DNA of 63,916 nt from an uncultured Candidatus Saccharibacteria bacterium (GTDB lineage Bacteria > Patescibacteriota > Dojkabacteria > B142 > JAFGMG01): contig CAYUFB010000003.1 of assembly GCA_964444125.1 (NCBI GenBank), positions 1 to 63,916 on the forward strand, in the 5' to 3' direction. The stretch's first letter is position 1. Each line of letters begins with the position of its first letter. Positions 2,087 through 63,916 of the stretch are shown piece by piece. The notes under the pieces are model-generated. The model was not told the origin of the DNA. It saw only the letters and a program-made list of their open reading frames with translations, and did not search any database. The translations under genes were made by a program, and so were the position numbers.

Positions 2087-3109
2087 TTATTTCGTCTTAT
2101 CTTCCTCTTGTTTATTTTTTCTCATTATCTTTCTAACCTTCCTTACAATCTTCTTCCAATTGACTGCAACGATGTACGTTACTCCTGCTACAAAAATTCC
2201 CGCTAGTGAATCTATCACATAGTGCTCTGCTCCATACCAGGTGGCGAAAGCTATAAGTAATGGAATTAATAAACTTGGAATAGCTTTCTTGCCATAGAGA
2301 TTGATGAGAAACAAACTCGCATAAAATGGCCAGGCTGTATGATGTGATGGGAAAGCAGCAAAGTCATTCCTGCCATAAGTTGATACCATACTCAATCCAT
2401 CACTTGGTAGATAGTTATTGTGCCAAAGAATTCTGCGAATTTCTACAAGGTATCCATTATCCGATGCCCACCAAGGGGGTGCAGAAGGAAATATCGCATA
2501 AATAAATACATCCACAATAGAGAAAATTGCTAATCCATAAGCATATGGCTTAAATAATTCTCGTTTCTTGACCCAAACAATAAAACCTACTGCAAGCCAA
2601 TACCAGAAAAATGTTGAATAGAAGAAAAAGAGAACGTAGTCGTACCAGCTTGCTATCCAAAAGTCTTTTCTAAGCGCATATTGAAGCTCCACAGATGGGA
2701 TGTCGTCTAAAAAAAAGAATAATGCTCTCTCCCACTTGATAAGAGGCTCAACAATTGGACTAATATTGAATTTATCATGAATATTTACGGCCCAAGCTCT
2801 TAATGCTTCATAAAGATAAAATAACGCCATAGGAGGCATCCAGTCTTTCACAAATTTCCAGCTTTCACCTATACACAATGACATTATAAGCAAAGTCAAA
2901 ATAATAAAGTCCATGCCAAAAGCTCGTTTGAAAATATTTATGATTATCAAAACAATAATCATAATTAATAGGAGGATACGGCGGGAATTTTCATTTTTTA
3001 GAACTATGTCAAATTTCGAAATTATGATGGACAATCTTTCCTTCAAATTTTTCTCCATTTTCTTTTTTGTTATAAATTTAGTCTGACAATTATAAAAAAA
3101 AATCACCAA
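2087..3109 (-). CDS. PAP2-superfamily (Aur1/inositolphosphorylceramide synthase-like) membrane phosphotransferase/phosphatase
   Basis: FPSAPPW, FAAFPSHH and HYVID motifs in a multi-TM protein. True start probably at the later Met (MEKNLK). Confidence 0.85.
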   Translation of the reverse strand: MVIFFYNCQTKFITKKKMEKNLKERLSIIISKFDIVLKNENSRRILLLIMIIVLIIINIFKRAFGMDFIILTLLIMSLCIGESWKFVKDWMPPMALFYLYEALRAWAVNIHDKFNISPIVEPLIKWERALFFFLDDIPSVELQYALRKDFWIASWYDYVLFFFYSTFFWYWLAVGFIVWVKKRELFKPYAYGLAIFSIVDVFIYAIFPSAPPWWASDNGYLVEIRRILWHNNYLPSDGLSMVSTYGRNDFAAFPSHHTAWPFYASLFLINLYGKKAIPSLLIPLLIAFATWYGAEHYVIDSLAGIFVAGVTYIVAVNWKKIVRKVRKIMRKNKQEEDKTK

Positions 3110-3681
3110 TTTATCCAGTAAACTTTAAGGAGGTGGAGGTTATGATGAGAATATATAAAAACGATTAGTATTAGAATAAGGTTTTATTATTGGGAATAAA
3201 AATAGAAACATAGAATCATATCAGGCCAGATATCGGATTCGTCTGGGTGATCAGTCCATAAATTTGATGTTCTATAAAAAATGTACAACTTTATTCAGTC
3301 TATCAAATTTATTAATTACGTATATGGTATCTTGTTGTACAAATAATTTTGAGCTTACTTAGGAGAATTAAGTATACACTTGTTTACTTTCTTGGTTCAA
3401 TATTGGTACATGAAATTGTTTGCAAAACTCTTGCTAAAGCGGTCTCTGTGCTCTTCTGAACATAGATTGTTTTGTATGATGCGATTGGAGAAATCCTAAA
3501 CTTATGTCTCTAGTCTTTTTGTGGATAAGTGTAATCGCAGGATCAAAAAATATAACTTTTCACTCTGAGATAAATATAAGTAAAAAATTTCACTAGACTG
3601 GATTATCATTTTGAAGTAATATTAGTTTGTGACACATTATTAGTCATTTACACGTTATATTGAATTAAATAAGTAAAAAAT

Positions 3682-6621
3682 ATGGCAACATATACAACTA
3701 CGATTAAATCTGGGAATACTAAGAAATCTAGATTTTCCAAAAGATCAAAAAGAAATTATCTATCAGCTTCATCACCAACAAGCAGAATCAGATCTGGTTC
3801 AAAAAATTTGAAAAGATCATTTTCTGGTAGATTGAGTCCAAAGAACAGAAAAAGGCTCAAGAAAGCTATGTATGCGACTATCTCTGCATTTGTCCTGGTT
3901 CTATTTATTGGATTTATATTTACACTTTGGTATCTACAAAAGATAAGCAAAGACCTTCCAAGTCCAGATGAGCCATTTGGTAGCAAAAATGTTGCAAGCG
4001 TGATTTATGACAGAAATGGTACCCAATTGTACAAGGTATATAGTAATGAAAACAGAGATCCTCTGATACTACCCTCAGATGAGGCTAAAATTACAGAAGT
4101 AGTTCCAGAGCATGTAGTTTGGGCTTTTTTGGCAGCCGAGGATGTGAATTTCTATGATCATTCAGGCTTTGACGTCACTTCAATGGTCTCTTGCGGAGTG
4201 AAAAATATCGCCGGTACGTCTACTTGTGGAGGTAGTACAGTTACTCAGCAACTTGTCAAACAAACTGTTTTGACAAGCGAAAGAAGACTAGAAAGAAAGG
4301 TTAAGGAATTATTGCTTTCTATGCAGGTCGAAAGACTTTATACAAAAGATCAAATACTTGCTATGTATTTAACTGTAGCACCAATGGGAAGCAACGTATA
4401 CGGTGTCAATACTGGTGCGAAATTTTATTTCGGGAAAGAACTGAAAGATTTAACAATTGCCGAAGCAGCAATCCTAGCATCTTTGCCACAGAATCCTAGC
4501 GTATTATCTCCTACTCTATCTACCGCACCAGAGAAGTCTGAAGCAATGCTTGCAGCTAGGAAAGAGTATGTATTAAGCCAGATGTTGAGACACAAGGATA
4601 AAATAAATAAAGAAACTGGTATAGATGATTTGATCACAGAAGAAAAAATCGAGGAGGCAAAAAATCAGGAATTAGCTTATCAGGAGCCAAGGATTGATAT
4701 TAAGGCTCCGCATTTTGTCTTTTATGTTCAACAACTGTTACAAGAGAGAGGATATAACAATGGTCAGCCATTTACATTAGCTGAGCTTGAAACCGGGGGT
4801 TATAAGATCAAGACAACCTTAGACTATACGTTGCAGCAAACTGCTGAAAGCGCTGTTACAAATGATGGAATTGGGGTTTATGGTGCAAGATATGGAGGTC
4901 ATAATGCTGCATTGATTACAACTAGACCATCAACAGGAGAAGTATTGGCATATGTGGGGTCTAAAGATTATAACGGCGAAAAGGAAGAAAAACTGTTTGA
5001 TCCAAAAGTAGATATTTTGACTTCTTTGCAACAGCCAGGATCATCGGCTAAACCAATTACGTATTATAACGCTTTTAGAGATGCAGTAGCTGCACCAGGC
5101 ACACAATTGATGGATATTCCAATTAGTATCGGTAATTACACTCCCAAAAACTCTGACGGGCAATTTAGAGGATTAGATAGCGTAAGAAATCATTTAGTTG
5201 ATTCTCGAAATATTCCAGCGTTGATATTGGTTGAAGCAACTGGTGTTGGCAAATACATTGATACAGCCAATAAATTTGGATATACGACATTTACTGATGT
5301 ATCAAACTATGGCCCTTCTATCACTTTAGGAGCTGCTGATGTCAAAGCAACAGAGCATGCACAAGCATTTGGGGTATTTGCTAATAGCGGAGACTTTGTT
5401 CAACAAGAAGTAGTATTAGAGATACAAGATAGATACGGCAAGGTAATTTATGAGCATAAGCCTGAAAGAGTAACAGTAGCTGACAAACAAGCAGTATTTT
5501 TGGTAAACGACGTATTAAGAGGAGTTCCTTCTGCTTCACCAAGTGTATTTGCTGGTGATGGTAGACAAGTTGCAGCCAAAACTGGAACTTCAGAGGAACA
5601 AAAAGATACTTGGTATGTGATGTATAGTCCTGATTTTGTAACCGTTGGATGGCTTGGTAACAATGATAATACTCCAATGAGACGGGGAGCTTTTGGTTCT
5701 ACTAGTGTGAAACCATGGGTACAAAAATACATGTCATCAATACTTGCATATTTCCCTGAAAAAACTAGTTTCTCAAGGCCAGGAGGGATTTCTACTAAGC
5801 AAATTTGTCAAACAGTCAATGGTGAAAAACTTTGTAGTACTGGTCAAGATTTAGTAATAGATGATCGAATGCCACCAGCATACTTATCTAAAAAAAAGTT
5901 CCTAGTGTGCGATGATCAGCCAGATAGGATAGCTCGTGAAATAGATCAACAAACGGGTCATGCAGTAGAAAAAGAATTTATGACATATATAATGCCGGTT
6001 GAATCATTGCAAAAGTTTGCAAACGAATACTTATCCGGGCATGGAATGCTTACCCCAACGGAGATGTGTACAATTGAAAGAAGTCCAAATAGTGGTAAAC
6101 CGTGGGCAACTATCTCATCTCCTACAGCTGGAGCTACATATAGCGATAATTTGAGTATTTCTTTTAACGCTTTTACTGCAAGTGGAATTATAACAAAGGT
6201 CAATGTATATATAGACGGGACTTTTGTAACTGAAGTGAAAAATCTGCCATATAATGGAAGTATTTCGTTGGCTGATTATTCAGAGGGAGCGCATACTTTG
6301 AAGCTTGATGTCCATGATAGCAATGGAAATGTCGGAAGCAACTCAGTTGGATTTGTAGTTTCCAAAGGAAGTTTCCAAATTACTTCTCCAGCATCAAGCG
6401 GTTCTTATACAGTGCCACTTAATGTCACAGCGAAATATAATGGGACTGGTAATCCAGGTGCAGTCAGTCTTTGTATCAATAGTACTTGTTCAATATCAAT
6501 GACAAAAAGTGGTGATAATTATAGTGCTACAATAAATACTCTTGCTTCTGGGACTCACAGCATATTTGTTAGAAGTAGTACTGGACGTACAAGTCCAACT
6601 ATGCAAATAGAGATACCATAA
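3682..6621 (+). CDS. Class A penicillin-binding protein (transglycosylase + transpeptidase) with C-terminal Ig-like domains
   Basis: Transglycosylase motifs AAED..FY.H.GFD, GGST+TQQLVK, RK+KE; transpeptidase SSAK, SRN, KTGT; Big-like repeats at the C-terminus. Confidence 0.95.
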   Translation: MATYTTTIKSGNTKKSRFSKRSKRNYLSASSPTSRIRSGSKNLKRSFSGRLSPKNRKRLKKAMYATISAFVLVLFIGFIFTLWYLQKISKDLPSPDEPFGSKNVASVIYDRNGTQLYKVYSNENRDPLILPSDEAKITEVVPEHVVWAFLAAEDVNFYDHSGFDVTSMVSCGVKNIAGTSTCGGSTVTQQLVKQTVLTSERRLERKVKELLLSMQVERLYTKDQILAMYLTVAPMGSNVYGVNTGAKFYFGKELKDLTIAEAAILASLPQNPSVLSPTLSTAPEKSEAMLAARKEYVLSQMLRHKDKINKETGIDDLITEEKIEEAKNQELAYQEPRIDIKAPHFVFYVQQLLQERGYNNGQPFTLAELETGGYKIKTTLDYTLQQTAESAVTNDGIGVYGARYGGHNAALITTRPSTGEVLAYVGSKDYNGEKEEKLFDPKVDILTSLQQPGSSAKPITYYNAFRDAVAAPGTQLMDIPISIGNYTPKNSDGQFRGLDSVRNHLVDSRNIPALILVEATGVGKYIDTANKFGYTTFTDVSNYGPSITLGAADVKATEHAQAFGVFANSGDFVQQEVVLEIQDRYGKVIYEHKPERVTVADKQAVFLVNDVLRGVPSASPSVFAGDGRQVAAKTGTSEEQKDTWYVMYSPDFVTVGWLGNNDNTPMRRGAFGSTSVKPWVQKYMSSILAYFPEKTSFSRPGGISTKQICQTVNGEKLCSTGQDLVIDDRMPPAYLSKKKFLVCDDQPDRIAREIDQQTGHAVEKEFMTYIMPVESLQKFANEYLSGHGMLTPTEMCTIERSPNSGKPWATISSPTAGATYSDNLSISFNAFTASGIITKVNVYIDGTFVTEVKNLPYNGSISLADYSEGAHTLKLDVHDSNGNVGSNSVGFVVSKGSFQITSPASSGSYTVPLNVTAKYNGTGNPGAVSLCINSTCSISMTKSGDNYSATINTLASGTHSIFVRSSTGRTSPTMQIEIP

Positions 6622-23013: not shown

Positions 23014-23676
23014 TTATTTCACTATATAACCAAACCCTCTGACGTTTTCAATAAAGTTGTCTGCTTTATGCGTCTGAAGTTTTTTACGGATTCTGTTAAT
23101 GTATACATTGATAATATTTGGATCTTTCTCTTCAGAATGAACCCATACGTTTTCGAGAATTTTGTGTTTTTCAAGAATTTGGCCTCTATTCAATAATAGA
23201 TACTTGATAAGTTGATACTCCTTTTTTGAAAAAGGTATGACGTTTTTATTAATGGATATTTGCATGTTCTCAAAGTCGAAAGCTAAATTGCCAATTTTTA
23301 TATTGCTTCTGATAATGTTGTGGCCTCTTTTGACAAGAGAATTGATACGTGCCATTAGTTCAGGTAGTTCAAAAGGTTTGGTTAAGTAGTCATCTGCTCC
23401 AGCATCGAAAGCTGTCAATTTATCATCAAGAGAATCTCTAACAGTGAGCATAAGGATTGGTGAATGATCGCCCTTTTTGCGAATGGATTGAATAACTTCA
23501 ATTCCAGTACCTTGTTTCAAGTTATAATCAACGATGAATGCTGCAAATTGATTTGGTTGAATTTTTTTTGCTTCATCGAGGCTTTCAAATAATTCTACAT
23601 CTACATTTTCTTTTTCAAACGCTTTAAAAAGAATATAACCAATTTTTTTTGAATCTTCTATAACTGCTATTTTCAT
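23014..23676 (-). CDS. OmpR/PhoB-family response regulator
   Basis: IED..., IVDYNL (phospho-Asp), GADDYLTKPF, ENVRGFGY winged helix. Confidence 0.95.
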   Translation of the reverse strand: MKIAVIEDSKKIGYILFKAFEKENVDVELFESLDEAKKIQPNQFAAFIVDYNLKQGTGIEVIQSIRKKGDHSPILMLTVRDSLDDKLTAFDAGADDYLTKPFELPELMARINSLVKRGHNIIRSNIKIGNLAFDFENMQISINKNVIPFSKKEYQLIKYLLLNRGQILEKHKILENVWVHSEEKDPNIINVYINRIRKKLQTHKADNFIENVRGFGYIVK

Positions 23677-54511: not shown

Positions 54512-55171
54512 CTATTTGTAGGTCTCCAATCGTGCTTTTTCAATTATAATTGGATTTATAGGTTTGTCCGAAGAGTTCGTTTTGGTGGTTGCGATTTTTT
54601 CTACAACGTTTTGACCCTTGATCACCTGACCAAAAACCGTATAATCCCCATCTAGGCCTGATGCTCCAAAATCGTCGTGTACGATATAAAATTGACTGCC
54701 AGATGAGGCTTTTTCAGGATTGACCGCATCAGAAAGTCTTGCTGTTGCTACTGCGCCTGCGATGTGATTTAGTTCTGCAGATATCTCTGCTGGAACTGTA
54801 TATCCAGGGCCACCGGTTCCATCACCTTTTGGATCCCCTGTTTGGATCATAAATCCGGAAATGATTCTATGGAAAGAAATTCCATCATAAAATCCGTCTT
54901 TGACAAGTTTTTTGAAATTTTCTACAGTTTGTGGTGCTTCTTCTTCAAAAAACTTGATATGTATATCACCATAGGAAGTTTCGAGTATTACGATTTCGTC
55001 ACCATTTTCTGGACAGCTTTTCTGACCGGATTTATCCTGGCAGTAGTTATCGGCTTGAATTTTCGTATCTTTTTTTGTAGTTGAATTATCAACAACTTTT
55101 GTATCTTTTTTGCATCCTGTAAGTGTGCTTGCCATGATAAGTATGATTGTTAGAATTAATATTTTTTTCAT
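54512..55171 (-). CDS. Cyclophilin-type peptidyl-prolyl isomerase lipoprotein
   Basis: Lipobox LTGC; GFYDG+.FHR+I.GFMIQTGDP.G.GTGGPGY, GSQFYI, YTVFGQV. Confidence 0.96.
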   Translation of the reverse strand: MKKILILTIILIMASTLTGCKKDTKVVDNSTTKKDTKIQADNYCQDKSGQKSCPENGDEIVILETSYGDIHIKFFEEEAPQTVENFKKLVKDGFYDGISFHRIISGFMIQTGDPKGDGTGGPGYTVPAEISAELNHIAGAVATARLSDAVNPEKASSGSQFYIVHDDFGASGLDGDYTVFGQVIKGQNVVEKIATTKTNSSDKPINPIIIEKARLETYK

Positions 55172-56202
55172 TTTGTGATGTGATTATATAAGAATTTGTA
55201 AATTTCTTCATTAACATTTATATTTCTTGTTACGAATTTTTCTTGATTTTCTGGTCCATAAATAATTTTCAAATTAGTCCTTCCTGGATTTTCTTCAATT
55301 ATTTTTTTTAATTTTTTTATCCATTCTGCGTCATTAATTTGTCTAATATCTATTGTTAAACTTGGAATATCAAGTGAAGTGGAATCAGATACGCTATCTG
55401 GCTGAAATTTTTCTTTGATGACATTGATATCTTCTTCAGGTGGTAAATCTTCTGGAATGATGCCATTGTTTATTAGTAATTTTCTAATTTCGCTGTTGTT
55501 ATGAACGTGTTCTTCTTTGATCAAATCTTGACCAAAAAGTTGTTTTTGTTTGGTCTGATGTGTGGTCATTTCTGTCGCTAGATCTTTGGCCTTAAGTGTG
55601 ATTGTTGGTAAATGATCTGCAAGAGGTTTGCTTTGTGTGATTCCAAATTTACGTTTCATTGTAGCTGTAGGGCTTCCAAATAATGTCGCATCTCCTGCAG
55701 ATCTGATTTGTGCTATCCCTTGACTGGATACTCCATGATCTTTAAGAGTATTAGAAAATTTCTTTTCTGTCTCTTTAAGCTTTTCTCTTGCTTGTACTCT
55801 ACGTGATAGTTGTTGTTGCATATCTACAATCTCCTGGCGTCTGGTTTGTATCGCAAAATAGTTTTGGGCTGAGGCAATAGAGGATTTGTGTGGGTCTCCA
55901 TTTTGAGCGATTACGTAACAAGCGTATCTTGATAGTTTGATATCTTTAATGTTACGAAACGTCTGTTTGTTGGTGCCTGAACCAATCTTGATCTTTTTGT
56001 TGACTTCAACGAAATGATTGGTTTCTTGTTGATAACCTCTTTTTATACTTTCTTTGGCTTTTTTGATAACCTTGAGAAAGTTGCGCCAGTCTTTGTACTC
56101 CAGAAGTGGCATAAGTTCTCTTGCGTACCAATATTCATTATTGGCATTATCTTTGTGTTTGATATCTTCAAATCCATAGCTGGATGTTGATATTTCATTC
56201 AT
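55168..56202 (-). CDS. dinD: DNA damage-inducible protein D (DinD-like) with extra C-terminal domain
   Basis: EYWYARELMPLLEY..W.NF, LSRYACY+IAQNGDP.K..IA.AQ.YFA+QTRRQE, HV.NN.E+R..L...GI.PE.LPPEEDI. Confidence 0.88.
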   Translation of the reverse strand: MNEISTSSYGFEDIKHKDNANNEYWYARELMPLLEYKDWRNFLKVIKKAKESIKRGYQQETNHFVEVNKKIKIGSGTNKQTFRNIKDIKLSRYACYVIAQNGDPHKSSIASAQNYFAIQTRRQEIVDMQQQLSRRVQAREKLKETEKKFSNTLKDHGVSSQGIAQIRSAGDATLFGSPTATMKRKFGITQSKPLADHLPTITLKAKDLATEMTTHQTKQKQLFGQDLIKEEHVHNNSEIRKLLINNGIIPEDLPPEEDINVIKEKFQPDSVSDSTSLDIPSLTIDIRQINDAEWIKKLKKIIEENPGRTNLKIIYGPENQEKFVTRNINVNEEIYKFLYNHITK

Positions 56203-56212
56203 GGCCTTAAAT

Positions 56213-57109
56213 TTATTTAAAAGTATTCAAGATCTCGCTTACGTCTTGTTTTTTTACTTGATATCTTAGGGCATCTGAATTGTAGATATGGGGAATGCGT
56301 TTAAGGAACGCTTCTCTTTCTTTATTTTGGTAAAGAATTCCTAAAGGAATTCTTTCTTGTTCATAGTCACATTTTTGATACGCTTGCCACAAGTCAGTTG
56401 GGTCATAATCTTTTTCGTCTTCGACTTTGTAAATTCTATCTTTATAATAAGCTTGGTCTTTGAATTTATTGTATGTTGGACAATGTTGAAATATCTCAAC
56501 ATAGCTAAATCCTTCGTGTTCGATCGCTTTCTGGAGTAATTGAGCTAGATAGTTTACTTCACCAGTAAATCCTCTTGCTACAAATGAAGCTCTTAAATTA
56601 AGCGCTAATTGTGTTGGATTGATATGATCTTCGACAACTCCGTATGGACTTGAGTTCATTTTTTGTCCTTTTGGTGTAGTAGGTGTTGCTTGTCCAGTAG
56701 TCAGACCGAAATCGCAATTATTATGTACTATTAATGTAATATTGTAATTACTTCTAATGCCATGAATCAAATGATGAATTCCTTCATCTAAAAGTCCACC
56801 ATCTCCTGTAATTGCAATAACTGGTAAATTTTTGTTTGCTAAATGAATGCCAACTGCAAGTGGAATCACTCTTCCATGAAGTCCTTTAAATGCATAAGCA
56901 TTGATTTTATCAGCCATATTGCCATTACATCCGATATCAAAGCAGATAGCAGCTTGAGTTGGAGCAACTTGCATATTGGATAAGGCCATTTTGATCGCTG
57001 TCCAAATTGCAAAATCACCACATCCTGGGCACCATGTGGGCATAATAGGGCTTGCAAAATCTCTAACTGTAATTTTTGATTGATTTGTAGTTGGATCTGG
57101 TGTACTCAT
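56213..57109 (-). CDS. 2-oxoacid:ferredoxin oxidoreductase beta subunit
   Basis: WCPGCGDF, IGC.G, HGR.IP.A.G, TGDG (TPP binding), GLTTGQATPT, QHCPTYN. Confidence 0.95.
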   Translation of the reverse strand: MSTPDPTTNQSKITVRDFASPIMPTWCPGCGDFAIWTAIKMALSNMQVAPTQAAICFDIGCNGNMADKINAYAFKGLHGRVIPLAVGIHLANKNLPVIAITGDGGLLDEGIHHLIHGIRSNYNITLIVHNNCDFGLTTGQATPTTPKGQKMNSSPYGVVEDHINPTQLALNLRASFVARGFTGEVNYLAQLLQKAIEHEGFSYVEIFQHCPTYNKFKDQAYYKDRIYKVEDEKDYDPTDLWQAYQKCDYEQERIPLGILYQNKEREAFLKRIPHIYNSDALRYQVKKQDVSEILNTFK

Positions 57110-58860
57110 TATTTGGAAATTTCTTGAATAATATCTTCGATATAAAATGGTTTACTGTCGTATCGATTTATTTTTTTAAACTGCATTCCTGTCTGTGCTT
57201 TGATTAATTCTGCAAGCTGACCTTCGAAATTTTGTTCTACAACATATACTTTATCCTGGGTATTTCTTAAGCTCTCTAGAATTTGAGTTTTTAGAGGCCA
57301 AATGTATGAATAATGGATAATTTTGAAATTTTTGCCTGCTTCTTTGAGTAATTCTAATGAATCAACTAATGTGGATTTGCTTGAACCCCAAGTGATAAAT
57401 GTGAACTCGGCATCTTTGTCTCCTATTACAATTGGATCTGGCAAATTTGCCTTGATTGTATCTAGTTTTCGCATTCGTTTTTCTAATTGTGCTTTGATTA
57501 CTTTCTCGTCTTCTGTTGAATATCCTTTTTCTATATGCTCGTCACTATTAGCCAAAAATGTGTTATGAATCAGACTTTCTTGCTTATCTGAATGATCTCC
57601 TGGAAACCATCTGTTTGATACGCCATCCTCGGTTATTTGATATCTAAGTTCAGTTCCAGTAAGTGTTTTTGGATCTAGGATTTTGCCTCTGTCTATGGTT
57701 ACTTTCGATAAATCGGGAGATGAAATGGTGTAAGTGCTTTCTGCAATGTATTTATCTGTCAAAATCAAAACTGGTACTTGATATTTCTCTGCTAAGTTAA
57801 ATGCATCTCCTATCAAGAAAAATGCATCCTCAGCATCACTGACACTTAAAACAATTCTTGGAAATTCTCCATGTGCTGTAGATATTGCTAACTTTAGATC
57901 TCCTTGTGCTGTCCAGGTTGGTGCTCCAGTTGCGGCTCCATGTCTTTGTGCAAGTACTACTACAAAAGGAGTCTCTGTGATTCCGGATAATGAAATTGCT
58001 TCACTCATAAGATCAAGACCACCTCCACTTGTACCGCACAATGCTCTTGTGCCAGCGTGATTGGCTCCAATACACATATTTGCTGATGTGATCTCGTCCT
58101 CTGCTTGTTTGACAAGCATCCCGACTTTTGGGGCCCAAGCTGCCAAATTTGTAAGAATTGAGCTTGCTGGTGTCATTGGATATGAGCTGTATAGTTTGAC
58201 TCCAGAGGCTGCGGCTCCAAGTGCCAATGTCTCATTTCCGGTAATTATTAAATTGTCTTTGATTTGATCATTGTTTTTGAAATTCTCTGCAAATTTCTTG
58301 AATTCACCAGTTATTGCGTCATGGCCTGTAAGTGCGGCTTTTTTGTTTGCTTCAATAATCTCCTCACTTTTGTTGAAAACTTCTGCAACAACTTCTAGAA
58401 GAGTATCAATTGGTAATCCTAAGGTCTTCCATACTGCTCCAAGTGTGACGGTATTTTTCATCAAAGCATTGCCACCAGCGCCTGTTGCAAGGTCCAAAAG
58501 TGGTAATGAATATAAATTGACTTTGTACTTTTCAATTAATGCCAACTGTTCTGGCGTAAGAGTGAAAACTTTGTCAATAATCATGACTCCACCATCTTGG
58601 TCAAATTCGTTTATATGAAGATCAATACTTTCTTTGTTTAGTGCCAATAAAACATCTGTATCTTTGCTAATAGAGGCAATTGGATTTGATGATACTTCAA
58701 TCTGGTAAACATTGTGCCCTCCTCTAATTAATGAGGGATATTCTGTATATCCGAAATTATAATAGCCAAGTCTCTTGAGGGCTTTGGAGATAATAATTCC
58801 AGAGCTTTTGATACCCTGCCCAGCTGCTCCTGCAATTTTGATTGTAAATCTATGTTTCAT
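57109..58860 (-). CDS. 2-oxoacid:ferredoxin oxidoreductase alpha subunit (fused gamma domain)
   Basis: IAGAAGQGI, YPSLIRGGH, YPMTPAS, QAEDEI, TSGGGL.LM.E. Confidence 0.95.
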   Translation of the reverse strand: MKHRFTIKIAGAAGQGIKSSGIIISKALKRLGYYNFGYTEYPSLIRGGHNVYQIEVSSNPIASISKDTDVLLALNKESIDLHINEFDQDGGVMIIDKVFTLTPEQLALIEKYKVNLYSLPLLDLATGAGGNALMKNTVTLGAVWKTLGLPIDTLLEVVAEVFNKSEEIIEANKKAALTGHDAITGEFKKFAENFKNNDQIKDNLIITGNETLALGAAASGVKLYSSYPMTPASSILTNLAAWAPKVGMLVKQAEDEITSANMCIGANHAGTRALCGTSGGGLDLMSEAISLSGITETPFVVVLAQRHGAATGAPTWTAQGDLKLAISTAHGEFPRIVLSVSDAEDAFFLIGDAFNLAEKYQVPVLILTDKYIAESTYTISSPDLSKVTIDRGKILDPKTLTGTELRYQITEDGVSNRWFPGDHSDKQESLIHNTFLANSDEHIEKGYSTEDEKVIKAQLEKRMRKLDTIKANLPDPIVIGDKDAEFTFITWGSSKSTLVDSLELLKEAGKNFKIIHYSYIWPLKTQILESLRNTQDKVYVVEQNFEGQLAELIKAQTGMQFKKINRYDSKPFYIEDIIQEISK

Positions 58861-58937
58861 AAAGTTATCTTATGACGAAAAATTCATTCTGTCAATCAAT
58901 GCTAGTTGAAGTTATATATGCTAGAAGTCAACAATAA

Positions 58938-59726
58938 TTAATTTCTTCGGTTTTTGATTGGTAACGATATTTCAAACTCTGTTGGTTGCTGACAATTAAT
59001 TAGTTTGATGTCTCCCCCAAAATCGGTTCGAATAATATCTTGAACTATAGAAAGTCCTAGTCCGGTTCCTGATGATTTTTTTGTACTATAGAAATATCGA
59101 AAAATTATATTTTTTTGAGAAGGGTTGATTCCTTTGCCATTGTCTTGAATCTTGATAATTAAATTATTATCTGAAAATGAGGAAATTATTTTGATAATTT
59201 GATTATCTTTTGGATTTTCTTCGAAAGCGTCAAGGCTGTTATTTAGTAAATTTAGTATTATCTGTCCAAATTTGACGGGGTTGCCTGTTAAGTTAATATC
59301 TTTGATATTGCGAAGTATTCTTGTGTTAGTTTTGCGTATTCTGTAGTCAAGTATCAATAAGATTTTTTGAATTTCTTCTTCTATAGAAAAATTTCTGATA
59401 TTGCAATCGAGTTTTGTTTGATTGAGAAAATTTTGCAGAAGTTTATCTATTTGCTCTACTCCAATTAATGCTGCCTTGATCTCATCACATGTTCCGGCTT
59501 TTTTCTTGTATAAATCCAAATTTAGCCTGATGGTAGTAAGCGGTGTGGCAATCTCATGGCTTAAGGCTCCAGATAGTTTGCCTAGATTGGCTAATTGGTT
59601 GATGCGCATCATCTCGGCTCTTTTGGAATTCTTAAGTCGACTAAAATTGTTCTCTACTTTTTTGTACAATTGAAATGATAATCTTGGTTGATCATCAAAT
59701 ATTAATTGTTTGTTATCTTTTAGCAT
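58938..59726 (-). CDS. Cytoplasmic histidine kinase (HisKA + HATPase_c) without sensor/TM region
   Basis: H-box SHEIATPL, N-box NLLNNSLDA, DNGKGI, GTGLGL. Confidence 0.9.
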   Translation of the reverse strand: MLKDNKQLIFDDQPRLSFQLYKKVENNFSRLKNSKRAEMMRINQLANLGKLSGALSHEIATPLTTIRLNLDLYKKKAGTCDEIKAALIGVEQIDKLLQNFLNQTKLDCNIRNFSIEEEIQKILLILDYRIRKTNTRILRNIKDINLTGNPVKFGQIILNLLNNSLDAFEENPKDNQIIKIISSFSDNNLIIKIQDNGKGINPSQKNIIFRYFYSTKKSSGTGLGLSIVQDIIRTDFGGDIKLINCQQPTEFEISLPIKNRRN

Positions 59727-59894
59727 TTTTCTTGTGATATAGAAAATGGCTGCAAATTTAAGACATGTGGGTCAGTTTATAATGTTTATAGCAGAAAAAT
59801 CATGAACGCGCATTGTATTGCAGCGCAAATTTTGGGGGAAAAACTGAGAGAAATTTTCGAGATATAGAATGGTTCGGTTGTGAATTATTAAAAA

Positions 59895-60658
59895 TCAAAT
59901 TTTTTTTAATAATTTTAGTAAGTAATTTGTTGGATTATAATCGAGAACCATAAATCTTGGATATTTCGGAAGTACCTCAGCATGATATTTCATTGAGAAT
60001 TTGATTCCGTGATAATTAAAGTATACCGTACGATTTTCCATTGTTCTTACCTCCGAGATCTTGCCAGCTTTATCGAATTCTTCCCATTTATTTAATAAAA
60101 TTGGGAAATTTTGAAGCTCTTGTAAAATTATTTCATACCAATGATCCCCTTTCATGAAGCCCATTTCGGTATATGTCCTTTCTAGTGAATCAATTAAGAT
60201 TTTATCCAATTTTTCTTTATCCAAAAACCTCTTTAGTCCAAATTCGTCTTTAAGTAAAATGATTGGGAAGGATTGAAATTGAAGTTGACTCCATTTTTCT
60301 CATCAATCTCGGCTAATAATTTGAAACCTAGCGACATATCAATTAATCTTGATCTATCATCAGTCATGTAGGCAAGTGTTGTCTTTTTTGCAAAATATTT
60401 TTTTGTTTCATCCTTAGCTAAATCGATTTCTTGTTGACTAGCAGGGTTTTGCGTATGACCAATGAGATAAGCAATCTCATAATCATTAAGAGATAGGTAA
60501 TTAGAAATTTGTAAAACAGTTTCTTTAGTTGGATTGATTTTGTTGTTTTCAATTCTACTGATACTGCCTTGTGAAGCATTGATAGCAATTTCAAGATCAA
60601 GTTGGCTAATCTTATTTCTCTCTCTAAAGTATTTTAATTTGTCGCCTAATTCTGGCAT
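59895..60658 (-). pseudogene. XRE HTH + MmyB-like ligand-binding regulator split by a 1-nt frameshift
   Basis: ORFs 60233-60658 and 59895-60224 together align with the intact paralog 60819-61583; adding one A to the A5 run at 60294-60298 joins them. Confidence 0.8.
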
Positions 60659-60818
60659 GATCGGTTCAGTAAGATTATGCTTAATACATAATTATATATC
60701 GAAAAGATTGAAAAATGAAGGAAAAGGGCAAGTAATTATTCTGAAAAAGGTCTTATATATCCAAAATCTTTATATATCTCAAATAATATAGTAAAATCAA
60801 TCACTTTTGCTACATAAT

Positions 60819-61583
60819 ATGAACACAGCAAAGCTTGGGCAAAAAATTAAGTTCTTTCGTGAAAGAGCGAATTTGTCTCAGTTCGAACTAGAAAACGAGA
60901 TTGGAGGTTCTGCGGGCTCCATAAGCAGGATAGAAAATGGAAAAGTGAATCCGACGAAGGAGACTCTTGAAAAAATTGCAAAAGTACTTGCCTTGAATGA
61001 CTACGAATTCTCATATCTTGCTGGTAAATTTGCCGATCCAGTCTCTCCCGCTGAAGTTGATAAGGCAAAATTAGTTGTAGATGAATACTTTTCAAAAAAA
61101 AGCACTTTTGCATATATGGTTGATGAAAGGTCAAGGGTTTGGGCTGTATCAAAAGGGTTCTTGAAATTATTAGGTATGCAAGATTTTGAGGGAATTGCGG
61201 GAAATTCGATACTTGAGTACATTACGAAGACTCAATATGGGGTAAGGAAGTATCTTGAAGGTGAAGAATATGAAAAAATGATGAAGGATCTACTTATTAG
61301 AATGTATCATGAACTAAGTTTTATGATACAAGATGAATGGTACATGCAAACGTTGAATATAATTGAAGATGATGACGTTTTATATAATATCTGGAAAGAT
61401 ATTCAGCTTAATCCTAAAAGAGACTTTAATGATGCTAGTTCCAGAAAGGTAAATTTCAATATTAATAAGATAGCTATCAGTATGGTCTATGGTGTTGAAC
61501 CAGTCTTGCATAATGAGAGATTTCGAGTAGTTGATTATGTCCCGGATAATAAGATAGTTAGATATTTATCAGGCATTTTATAA
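60819..61583 (+). CDS. XRE-family HTH regulator with MmyB-like (PAS-like) C-terminal domain
   Basis: KIKFFRERANLSQ.ELE..IG.S...ISRIENGK.NP; AYMVDERSRVWAVS..F..L; C-terminal V+DYVP. Confidence 0.85.
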   Translation: MNTAKLGQKIKFFRERANLSQFELENEIGGSAGSISRIENGKVNPTKETLEKIAKVLALNDYEFSYLAGKFADPVSPAEVDKAKLVVDEYFSKKSTFAYMVDERSRVWAVSKGFLKLLGMQDFEGIAGNSILEYITKTQYGVRKYLEGEEYEKMMKDLLIRMYHELSFMIQDEWYMQTLNIIEDDDVLYNIWKDIQLNPKRDFNDASSRKVNFNINKIAISMVYGVEPVLHNERFRVVDYVPDNKIVRYLSGIL

Positions 61584-61605
61584 TTAATATTTAAAAATTT
61601 TCTAT

Positions 61606-62868
61606 ATGAAAAAGAAAAAAGTTCTCATCTTCCCTTACTCGAACCAATTAGGAACTACTATCCCATCTATTACACTTGCAAATTTACTAATAGATAATGG
61701 TTTTGAGGTTGAATTTGCTTCAAAGGGCAAATATTCTTTTGTAATAAAGGAAAAAGGATTTGTATTACATGACGTCCCAGAAATATCTTATATGCATTAC
61801 AGGAAATATTTAGATCAAAACAGAATGGATTATTACGAAAAGCATTTAGTAAGATTGATGGTCGATTATGAAGTAGACATGATCAATGAATTAAAACCAG
61901 ATATAGTCGTTGGGCATAATAGGCCTTCTTTATACATTTCAACTAAATTAACGAAAAAGCCTTTTGTTTCGATGACAGTGGCTTCTTTGACAAATTATTA
62001 TGACCAAAGGATTTATATACCTGAGAATCACCCTTTGAATAAAATTATTCCGTTAGTAGATGTTAATTCGCTTGTGCCAGCAATTGTGCCGAAAATTGTA
62101 TACAACATAACTATGAAGCGATTTGCAAAAGGTTTTAACGAAGTGCTTAAAGAATACAATTTATCAAAGGTCAAGTCATATTTGGATTTGAATGAGGGAG
62201 ATATCACACTTCTTATCGAGACCTGGGGTTTGGTTGGATTGAAAAAATTACCATCAAATTTTTATTTTCTTGAACAAGATACAGAAAGTGGCTTTGGAGA
62301 AAAGCCAGCTTGGTATAGTAGTGTACAGAAACTAAAAGAAGGTGGTAAAAAAATTATTGGAATTAGTATGGGGAGTTCTTCTTTTGAGGCATATCCGTTA
62401 GTCTTAAAAGATTTAGTAGAATTTGTATTATCCCAAAAAGATGAGTATATATTAGTATCCAATCATTGTGGGTTGGAAAAAGAATATACAAATTCAAATA
62501 ATATATATATTGAACGTTTTATCCCTCCACTTGATCTTATGAATTTAGTTGATATAGTTATTACACACGGTGGTAAAAATACACTAAATGAGGCTGTTTT
62601 GGCAAAAAAAATGATTATAGGAATTCCTGAACAAGCTGAGCAATTGTGGAATATAAAATATATGGAAAAATTAGGAGTGGTGAAAGTATTATCTAGATTT
62701 GAATTAAGGAAAAATAATAATATATTAACACACAATGTGCAAAGATTATTAAAAGATAGTAAGATGAGGCAAAATGTTGAGAAATTTGTGCAAAATGACT
62801 TAATAAATGAAGACATTTATGATCACAAAGCTACGATAGTAGCAGCTCTGCAACGTTTGAGTAAATAA
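61606..62868 (+). CDS. GT-B glycosyltransferase, GT1/MGT-like (small-molecule or lipid acceptor)
   Basis: L+..G.EV.F, ISMGSS, ERFIP..DL+..VD+VITHGG..T+.EA+......+G+P...EQ..N....EKLG. Confidence 0.88.
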   Translation: MKKKKVLIFPYSNQLGTTIPSITLANLLIDNGFEVEFASKGKYSFVIKEKGFVLHDVPEISYMHYRKYLDQNRMDYYEKHLVRLMVDYEVDMINELKPDIVVGHNRPSLYISTKLTKKPFVSMTVASLTNYYDQRIYIPENHPLNKIIPLVDVNSLVPAIVPKIVYNITMKRFAKGFNEVLKEYNLSKVKSYLDLNEGDITLLIETWGLVGLKKLPSNFYFLEQDTESGFGEKPAWYSSVQKLKEGGKKIIGISMGSSSFEAYPLVLKDLVEFVLSQKDEYILVSNHCGLEKEYTNSNNIYIERFIPPLDLMNLVDIVITHGGKNTLNEAVLAKKMIIGIPEQAEQLWNIKYMEKLGVVKVLSRFELRKNNNILTHNVQRLLKDSKMRQNVEKFVQNDLINEDIYDHKATIVAALQRLSK

Positions 62869-62887
62869 ATTCTTATTAGAAATTCAG

Positions 62888-63916
62888 GTGGGCAATATTG
62901 AATATCAATTGTTATTTGATAATGATTCTTTAGTATTGGTATCTGCTGCGCTATTAAACTTTTCCGTTTTTGTTTATTTATTCTCTAAACAAGTTAGTTT
63001 TGAAGAGGCAAGTAAGAAGTTCTTGGCTTATAGTACTTTATCAGTATCCATATGGATATTGAGCTCGTGGATTAATCATGTTGCACAAGATGTAACAGTT
63101 ATTACTCATTCTTCAAGGTTGTCGTATAGCTCTACTGTTGTGGCATTATTTTGTCTCATTTTCTTTGCGTTAAAATATCGTAATCAAAGTATATCAAATG
63201 TATTTTATCTTTTGATGGCTGGATTATTTTCTCTAATACAGTTTACTCCACTGATAATTGAAAAAGGTATTCCTGCAAGTTTAAGCACAAGGGAAGATGC
63301 TGTGTTTGGGAAATTATATTTTGCATGGTCAATATTAATATTAATATTGGTAGTATATCTAATATATTTATTGTATCTGGCATATAAGGAAAACACTGGG
63401 ATTAAAAGAGAGAAGATAAAATTTATTGTTGGATTTTTATTATTATCAGTAATTCTGACCGTATTTTTTAATTTAGTTTTGCCAAATTTTGGTGAACGCT
63501 CTTTTATTTTTGTAGGTCAGTATTCTACCTTTATTTTTGCCCTTGGAGTTAGTTGGGTGGTAATTCAGGATAGATTATATTCTTTCAAATACACAATCGC
63601 GAAAATTCTTTCAATTTTGGCTGTAGGGACAATTCTATTTTTATTAAGTTGGGGGACTCAGAGAATAGAGCAAGTAATTTTGAAATGGGATATAACGCAA
63701 ATTTTTTCTGGAAGAATAATAATATTAGGTATTTTTGTTGGTTCTGTGGTGGCATTGTATATAGATTATTTGAATCCTCAAGTTCGAACAATGATATTTG
63801 ATCGTTTAGGAATTAGTGTCAGCACGCTTGGTCAATTAGAGAACTGGCTACTAGATAAAACTAACGAAACGATTAGAATAGATATCTATATTGAAACATT
63901 TCTTAAAAAGCTTGGA
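62888..63916 (+). CDS. Membrane sensor with N-terminal 7TM (HisKA_7TM-like) domain, probably a histidine kinase; truncated by the window edge
   Basis: My translation from GTG 62888 is open to the window end (343 codons): multiple TM helices, FG.LYF.W, FFNLVLP.FG, G.YST, W+++Q.RLY..K. The kinase domain itself is not in the window. Confidence 0.7.
   Translation, partial: MGNIEYQLLFDNDSLVLVSAALLNFSVFVYLFSKQVSFEEASKKFLAYSTLSVSIWILSSWINHVAQDVTVITHSSRLSYSSTVVALFCLIFFALKYRNQSISNVFYLLMAGLFSLIQFTPLIIEKGIPASLSTREDAVFGKLYFAWSILILILVVYLIYLLYLAYKENTGIKREKIKFIVGFLLLSVILTVFFNLVLPNFGERSFIFVGQYSTFIFALGVSWVVIQDRLYSFKYTIAKILSILAVGTILFLLSWGTQRIEQVILKWDITQIFSGRIIILGIFVGSVVALYIDYLNPQVRTMIFDRLGISVSTLGQLENWLLDKTNETIRIDIYIETFLKKLG

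Follow-up and report, generated by a model that had tools for sequence, protein, structure and literature searches.

A conserved pairing of glycosyltransferase and membrane histidine kinase genes, with a remote MmyB-like regulator, on a Dojkabacteria contig

What do bacteria of the Candidate Phyla Radiation (CPR) sense? Such bacteria, the Dojkabacteria among them, are uncultured, depend on hosts and have few recognisable signalling systems. The question is raised by a gene cluster at one end of contig CAYUFB010000003.1 (assembly GCA_964444125.1), a stretch of 63,916 nt from an uncultured Candidatus Saccharibacteria bacterium that GTDB places in the Dojkabacteria; this whole stretch is called the window here. 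At positions 58938-63916 the original prediction had seen a module made up of a sensorless histidine kinase, two XRE-MmyB regulators, a GT1 glycosyltransferase (GT) and a seven-transmembrane (7TM) sensor, and had proposed that it senses and modifies a diffusible signal. We find that the part of this module that recurs is a GT gene adjacent to the gene for a 7TM histidine kinase, a pairing present in seven lineages. The window carries the pair behind a regulator gene, in the following order.

60807-61583, plus strand: intact regulator with an XRE-type helix-turn-helix (HTH) and a PAS-like domain, 258 aa from a TTG at 60807 (gene callers start at the ATG at 60819, giving 254 aa)
61606-62868, plus strand: GT1 (GT-B) nucleotide-sugar glycosyltransferase, 420 aa, 22 nt after the regulator
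62888-63916, plus strand: N-terminal membrane part of a 7TM kinase, with 8-9 transmembrane segments, starting 19 nt after the GT gene and open at the end of the window

The open reading frame (ORF) listing of 55000-63916, together with Pfam and NCBIfam scans of the window proteins, recovered the predicted genes at their predicted positions and with both predicted gaps. No terminator-like site was found on the plus strand between the regulator, GT and 7TM kinase genes.

We consider the odds roughly even that the GT and the kinase act on the same membrane-associated lipophilic molecule. The functional core would be a two-gene cassette consisting of a cytoplasmic GT1 with a small-molecule or lipid acceptor and a polytopic 7TM kinase. 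The hydrophobic substrate of the GT, or its glycosylated product, would act within the membrane as the cue to which the kinase responds, and the kinase would relay the signal to a response regulator encoded elsewhere, for which an orphan OmpR-type gene at 23014-23676 is a candidate. In the lineage of the window the cassette has come to stand behind an MmyB/MltR-like XRE regulator, which, by analogy with MltR and its myristic acid, might bind a fatty-acid-like ligand and might act at the divergent promoter region to control the three-gene operon to which it belongs. We favour this reading because the adjacency holds in seven lineages with otherwise unrelated neighbours and was also found upstream of kinases picked blind; because the GT has small-molecule and sterol GT1s as its structural neighbours and invariant donor motifs, while the kinase has many transmembrane segments joined by short loops; because the regulator has the fold of MltR, a protein seen with a bound fatty acid (PMC3406030); and because the three genes are closely spaced without a terminator-like site, and repeated or conserved motifs lie in both upstream regions.

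The seven lineages are represented by the window and by loci L006, L023, L007/L011 (Ca. Dojkabacteria PAT1), L025, L031 and L032. Across these cassettes GT identity ranges from 27 to 66% and kinase identity from 21 to 53%, and the two genes are separated by 3-59 nt or by a small hydrolase-like gene. L031 and L032 were chosen solely because their kinases, 43-45% identical to that of L023, sit on long contigs, and their gene context had not been seen beforehand; both have a GT1 gene 3-10 nt upstream of the kinase gene. The arrangements are listed here with the identity of each GT to that of the window. POR stands for the alpha and beta genes of a two-subunit 2-oxoacid:ferredoxin oxidoreductase, which flank the module in the three closest lineages.

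L006 (GT 64% identical): POR genes, soluble kinase, one regulator, GT, 7TM kinase
L023/L024 (62%): POR genes, 89-aa ORF, one regulator, GT, 741-aa kinase, 92-aa ORF, convergent RuBisCO gene
L021 (76%): two tandem regulators ahead of the GT
L007/L008/L011, Ca. Dojkabacteria PAT1 (52%): GT, hydrolase-like gene of 278-285 aa, kinase of 743-777 aa; no regulator
L025 (53%): arranged as L007
L031 and L032 (27-31%): GT1 immediately upstream of the kinase; all other neighbours differ
L029: kinase of the same family, preceded by a 538-aa enzyme-like protein; a divergent pair of regulators and a LysE exporter lie alongside
POR genes: window 56213-58860; L006 3186-5914; L023 40-2703

A neighbourhood of this kind could be fortuitous, with functionally unrelated genes held in local synteny among close relatives. 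The window, L006 and L023 share the flanking POR genes and so are not independent loci, and neither the soluble kinase nor the second regulator is conserved. The adjacency of GT and kinase, however, persists in L007, L025, L031 and L032, among otherwise different neighbours and with GT identities down to 27-31%. We therefore disfavour chance as a very improbable explanation. Co-conservation was found for the GT and the 7TM kinase and did not extend to the predicted five-gene circuit as a unit: the soluble kinase varies between lineages, as does the second regulator, and these two and the remaining regulator are each missing in relatives, the regulator joining the GT-kinase pair in three or four lineages. 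The suggestion that the operon runs on into synthase genes was not borne out either. In L023 the 741-aa kinase is its last gene, and a small ORF that is not conserved and the convergent RuBisCO gene come next. A conserved gene after the kinase could be ruled out, the small downstream ORFs being unrelated to one another. A gene for the RuBisCO large subunit converges on the kinase gene in both L023 and L029.

In L029 the place of the GT is taken by a 538-aa protein (2594-4210) that carries an SSGYGGKP P-loop-like motif and has a faint PaaK match (NCBIfam, E 0.01), with no match in Pfam or the PDB. The presence of an enzyme-like gene other than a GT beside the same kinase family fits a pattern of 'modifying enzyme plus sensor'. 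It would also fit a signal synthase and its receptor, quorum- or host-cue-like, in which the GT would make a glycosylated lipophilic signal and the kinase would be its membrane receptor. An enzyme gene adjoins a polytopic kinase gene in all seven lineages with no response regulator alongside, the layout also seen in LuxM/LuxN and CqsA/CqsS, where an enzyme gene lies beside that of a multi-pass kinase and no response regulator is adjacent. Exchange of the partner enzyme (GTs of 27-66% identity, a GT with a hydrolase-like protein, or the different enzyme of L029) is as expected for signal diversification, and a LysE-type exporter gene stands beside the regulators in L003 and L029. The likeness to the Lux and Cqs systems is one of layout only, since the enzyme here belongs to the GT1 family and its partner is a non-hybrid kinase, in whose orthologues no receiver (Response_reg) domain was found. 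We know of no autoinducer synthase that is a GT1, which counts against this explanation, as do the lack of an exporter at the window locus, the occurrence of the GT family on its own in Bacteroidota, and the absence here of any sign of secretion or density dependence. A synthase-receptor pair is thus unlikely in our judgement. The diffusible or quorum signal that had been proposed is not supported by these results; a role in quorum sensing would be one possibility.

Which kind of molecule the cassette might act on depends in the first place on the GT. Its sequence matches Glyco_tran_28_C (2.1e-7), UDPGT (2.4e-4), the MGT subfamily (1.4e-15) and the MJ1255/VC2487 family (7.8e-14). An AlphaFold2 (AF2) model (mean predicted local distance difference test, pLDDT, 88.2) has the GT-B fold, and Foldseek matched it to GT1 structures with E values of 1e-21 to 1e-17 and TM-scores of 0.65-0.72. 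The 50 structures nearest to it are without exception GT1s of the small-molecule, natural-product or sterol type, among them TuUGT202A2, OleI/OleD, YojK, CalG and UGT51. A MurG or other cell-wall GT is ruled out by scores of 20.7 bits against the murG model TIGR01133 (cut-off 250) and 21.6 bits against PRK12446 (cut-off 339), and by the absence of any MurG structure from the top 50 fold matches; the GT is not the ordinary cell-wall enzyme that would have spoken against the original prediction. From its sequence and modelled fold the protein is predicted to be a GT1 of the small-molecule type.

The sequence resemblance to characterized GT1s is concentrated in one half of the protein. With TuUGT202A2, OleD/OleI, YjiC/YojK, CalG and UGT51 it shares the GT-B fold and the C-terminal motif for uridine diphosphate (UDP)-sugars, HGG..T..E..P.Q.EQ, whereas identity to them is 14-20% and its N-terminal acceptor domain has no counterpart by sequence. 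The family profile accordingly matches GT1s in the PDB only in the C-terminal donor domain (UGT202A2 at 1e-21 and YojK at 2e-17, with YjiC, UGT51, CalG2 and OleI weaker). The donor motifs THGGxNT..E and PEQAEQ are conserved, and H321, G322, G323, T326 and E345 are invariant among 10 members with identities down to 27%. A scan of metagenomes with the GT profile added only three short loci.

Because the closest relatives in sequence and structure (TuUGT202A2, OleI/OleD, YojK/YjiC and the MGT subfamily) are detoxifying or self-resistance enzymes, we considered whether the GT might glycosylate a lipophilic antimicrobial or xenobiotic, as Mgt/OleD and YjiC/YojK do, with the regulator and kinase detecting the compound or the membrane damage that it causes. 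The distribution of the GT is patchy over phyla (Dojkabacteria, Bacteroidota and Methylococcaceae), as is often the case for accessory resistance genes, and MmyB-like regulators have been tied to antibiotic and fatty-acid metabolism (PMC3406030). The scores, however, fall far below the respective cut-offs (57 bits against 260 for MGT, and 33 against 700 for Mgt), and the N-terminal acceptor domain lacks sequence relatives in the PDB. A tight and old link to one kinase family would be unusual for a resistance GT, and the apparent lack of the catalytic histidine described below is unlike those enzymes. Detoxification or resistance therefore seems to us a rather improbable function.

GT1 enzymes usually carry a GxGHxxP loop that holds the catalytic histidine. 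In the window GT the corresponding region (residues 1-20, encoded at 61606-61665) reads FPYSNQLGT rather than GxGH, and the form found throughout the clade is FPYSxQLG(T/S)xxP, so that the GHxxP loop of the small-molecule GT1s reads QLG(T/S)xxP in every member (10 of 10). Within this loop P10, Q14, L15 and G16 are invariant over the 10 members. The only alignment that reaches the loop sets GHINPS of YojK against GTTIPS, with the histidine opposite Thr17, in a segment that scores -1.0 bits and is not significant. The canonical catalytic histidine thus appears to be replaced by threonine or serine in this clade; the invariant residues Q14, D99 and R106 could substitute for it. Combined with the intact UDP-sugar site, this loop allows a bolder proposal, namely that the GT1-fold protein is not a metabolic enzyme and instead serves the kinase as a cytoplasmic partner that binds the ligand or makes the signal, the two forming a dedicated pair that makes and/or reads a glycosylated lipid cue exchanged with a host or with kin. 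We regard this as a long shot. If it were true, ultrasmall CPR cells would possess a signalling system built on a glycosyltransferase.

The second member of the cassette is incomplete in the window. Its ORF scores 26.5 bits against HisKA_7TM (PF16927), just below the gathering threshold of 28.6, and ends before the catalytic core. The L006 kinase (53% identical to that of the window) extends into the HisKA H-box at about residue 483, and the L023 kinase (50% identical) is complete at 741 aa, with HisKA_7TM at 31.3 bits, a faint GAF match, HisKA and HATPase_c; the HisKA and HATPase_c core is present in the orthologues of L023, L007, L025 and L029. By comparison with these orthologues, the product of 62888-63916 is most probably the front of a HisKA_7TM histidine kinase of about 740 aa, cut by the end of the contig, and the predicted 7TM sensor is accordingly present as a probable kinase N-terminus. 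With other HisKA_7TM kinases its orthologues share the N-terminal 7TM region and a cytoplasmic linker with a faint GAF match, followed by HisKA and HATPase_c; the window copy differs in its truncation, its sub-threshold score and two further transmembrane segments on the C-terminal side of the 7TM region. A search for kinase homologues, of which at least some 80 were found, returned no full-length copy from the organism of the window. Both contigs from the Joint Genome Institute (JGI) break off at the identical base, and Logan contigs stop even earlier, at a depth of about 4. The contig end (63880-63916) reflects low coverage and not a repeat; nothing runs past it, and some 400 kinase codons are simply unassembled.

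The short loops between the transmembrane segments point to a sensor of the intramembrane type. Such a sensor might respond to a bulk property of the membrane, with the GT making a glycolipid from scavenged diacylglycerol or from a sterol- or hopanoid-like lipid. This logic is that of DesK/Des, in which the gene for a lipid-acting enzyme also lies beside that of a membrane-sensing multi-pass kinase, a likeness of layout only. Membrane-lipid homeostasis is in keeping with the sterol glucosyltransferase UGT51 among the structural neighbours of the GT, with its Glyco_tran_28_C match and with a hydrophobic stretch (residues 147-165) in its N-domain. It is also in keeping with alpha/beta-hydrolase (lipase-like) or hydrolase-like genes of 263-285 aa directly after the GT gene in L007 (9277-10113), L025 (9267-10124) and L009 (8194-8985). 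The hydrolase gene lies between GT and kinase in two CPR lineages and beside the GT in Methylococcaceae too, which suggests a functional link between GT and hydrolase, one that is not present in the window. Against homeostasis, glycolipid synthases of the MurG, MGD and UgtP types are missing from the top 50 structural matches of the GT, and we rate it as quite unlikely.

In the window the shared-molecule cassette that we favour stands behind the intact plus-strand regulator, whose HTH is readily detected by Pfam (HTH_3 8.5e-11, HTH_31 2.3e-9). No match to the ligand-binding family PF17765 (MLTR_LBD/MmyB) was obtained in Pfam for the regulators of the window or for their 16 closest relatives. 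When 60 members of the wider family were examined, five matched PF17765 at E<=1, the best at 5.3e-5, and the profile of these 60 sequences matched residues 42-218 of 3pxp, beyond the HTH, with an E value of 1.9e-6. In an AF2 model built from a 16-sequence alignment (pLDDT 87.9, predicted TM-score 0.82), an HTH is joined by a linker helix to a PAS-like beta-alpha-beta domain. With this model Foldseek ranked 3pxp_A and 3pxp_B first in the PDB, over the full length (E 1.4e-9, 282 columns, TM-scores 0.55 and 0.50), and its other matches, at E>=3e-3 and so six orders of magnitude worse, covered no more than one PAS or HTH domain each. Given the Foldseek match, the profile match and the five PF17765 hits, we assign the regulators by remote homology of sequence and modelled fold to a distant CPR branch of the MmyB-like regulators. 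The branch is sizeable, with about 197 representative clusters at E<=1e-30 in an exhaustive profile search. The MmyB-type assignment of the original prediction is upheld at this remote level and not as a Pfam match of the window proteins themselves.

The structure recovered in this search is that of MltR (Caur_2278, PDB 3PXP), the structural type of the MmyB-like family, which was crystallized with myristic acid (PMC3406030). Both proteins begin with a five-helix XRE HTH, continue with a linker helix and end in a PAS-like alpha/beta domain; the window regulator is shorter (about 255 aa against about 290 aa), and identity between them is 14%. The MmyB-like family has been described as mostly actinomycete (PMC3406030), whereas the window regulator belongs to a CPR branch.

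Several observations weigh against a shared lipophilic molecule or against parts of the circuit drawn around it. The adjacency was sampled from a small number of loci and not by a systematic census. Activity of the GT is not assured, given that the position of the catalytic histidine is occupied by Thr17 on a weak alignment. No response regulator gene adjoins either of the two kinase genes in the window, nor was one seen in L006, L023, L007, L025, L029, L031 or L032, the orphan OmpR-type gene at 23014-23676 being the nearest to the cassette of the window. Four of the seven cassettes have no regulator. Outside the CPR, members of the GT clade are found in Bacteroidota and Methylococcaceae in varying surroundings and with no kinase, so the GT is able to function on its own. 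The divergences of GT and kinase are not congruent (r = 0.12), which implies that partners were exchanged or reshuffled while the adjacency stayed. Finally, a search for evidence of co-transcription found no RNA run that contains the locus.

All parts of the locus belong to known superfamilies. Three features appear to be undescribed, namely the conserved pairing of a GT1 with a 7TM kinase, its putative local control by a CPR branch of MmyB-like proteins and the unusual loop of the GT; a full-text literature search on HisKA_7TM and on Dojkabacteria with kinase or glycosyltransferase found nothing relevant. The pair offers a concrete handle on what CPR cells sense, and the locus offers three proteins, soluble or open to reconstitution, and two short DNA regions for work in vitro. 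A molecule that turned out to be a lipid of the host, or a glycolipid made by the cell itself, would be relevant to the way in which episymbionts perceive their hosts. Should a common ligand for GT and kinase prove wrong, the locus would still be a clearly bounded example of a new branch of MmyB-like regulators in the CPR and of a GT1 clade whose active-site loop is unusual.

Upstream of the three plus-strand genes lie the remaining parts of the module and two sets of short DNA elements.

60692-60778, plus strand: TTATATATC(N)AAA, repeated directly three times in the divergent intergenic region of 148 nt
60233-60658, minus strand: N-terminal part of a regulator paralogue, 141 aa, with XRE HTH (HTH_3 7.8e-9), linker helix and first strands
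59895-60224, minus strand: C-terminal PAS-like part of the same paralogue, 109 aa, in another frame that is open from 60299
59814-59829: 16-mer TGTATTGCAGCGCAAA containing TTGC-N3-GCAA, 88 nt upstream of the start of the soluble kinase gene
58938-59726, minus strand: soluble histidine kinase, 262 aa (Pfam HisKA 3.3e-8, HATPase_c 9.8e-19)

The divergent intergenic region holds three of the five copies of TTATATATC in the window, where 1.25 are expected; none of 100 shuffles reached five. A related sequence, GATATATA, occurs twice in the intergenic region of L006 and once upstream in each of L029, L004 and L025. On this distribution the TTATATATC repeats are candidate regulator sites or promoter elements. 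The 16-mer TGTATTGCAGCGCAAA occurs once in the 64-kb window, recurs exactly at L006 7067-7082 and with one mismatch at L006 6844-6859, and is found in degenerate form at L023 ~3075-3092. It has been kept between the kinase and regulator genes in three lineages, with no more than 39-64% identity among the proteins, and is a candidate operator or promoter element, putatively a regulator site. No Rfam family matched anywhere in the region, and no riboswitch or other RNA element was detected in the intergenic regions.

The predicted divergent pair of paralogous regulators is present, with its minus-strand copy split by a frameshift. When joined, the two halves align end to end with the plus-strand paralogue at 39% identity and retain most of the residues that are invariant in the family; in the C-terminal piece, which aligns to residues ~135-258 of the plus-strand protein, the invariant R-F is preserved. 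What splits the gene is a net -1 nt frameshift within 60236-60299, for which the A5 run at 60294-60298 and a position near 60270-60280 are both candidate sites, each yielding a family-like length. The split sequence is identical in two JGI samples and shows no difference in Logan contigs of three runs (X1, X2 and X4) from an anaerobic-digester study, which rules out an assembly error and indicates that the frameshift is a property of the population. Programmed -1 frameshifting is unlikely on reading the overlap zone, which contains no X XXY YYZ heptamer and in which the A5 run is short for slippage. Since the downstream frame has stayed free of stops over 135 codons of AT-rich DNA, the second paralogue may be a recently frameshifted copy, or its pieces may remain in use.

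Regulators of this family are often paired or in triplets, divergent or in tandem, in relatives (L003 7097-10552, L029 351-1978 and L021 3-1003), which suggests that the pair in the window is an old arrangement and that one copy was frameshifted only here. The second regulator is absent from L006 and L023.

The minus-strand kinase agrees with the prediction of a sensorless cytoplasmic enzyme. It consists only of the dimerization and histidine phosphotransfer (DHp) and catalytic domains, with the H-box SHEIATPL and the N, G1, F and G2 boxes present; no sensor domain and no hydrophobic or transmembrane segment was found. It was encountered in only two lineages among the loci compared: L006 has an orthologue of 39% identity, and in L023 an unrelated 89-aa ORF occupies its place. 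The sequence is that of a soluble, sensor-less kinase, a lineage-variable neighbour of the cassette with its own conserved 16-mer upstream.

A defence system was ruled out with PADLOC, in which the regulators gave generic HTH matches only and the GT and kinases none. A gene for a Bro-N-domain protein of about 345 aa lies a few genes away from the GT-kinase cassette both in the window (55168-56202) and in the Dojkabacteria PAT1 locus L007 (13911-14951), although the other neighbours of these two loci differ.

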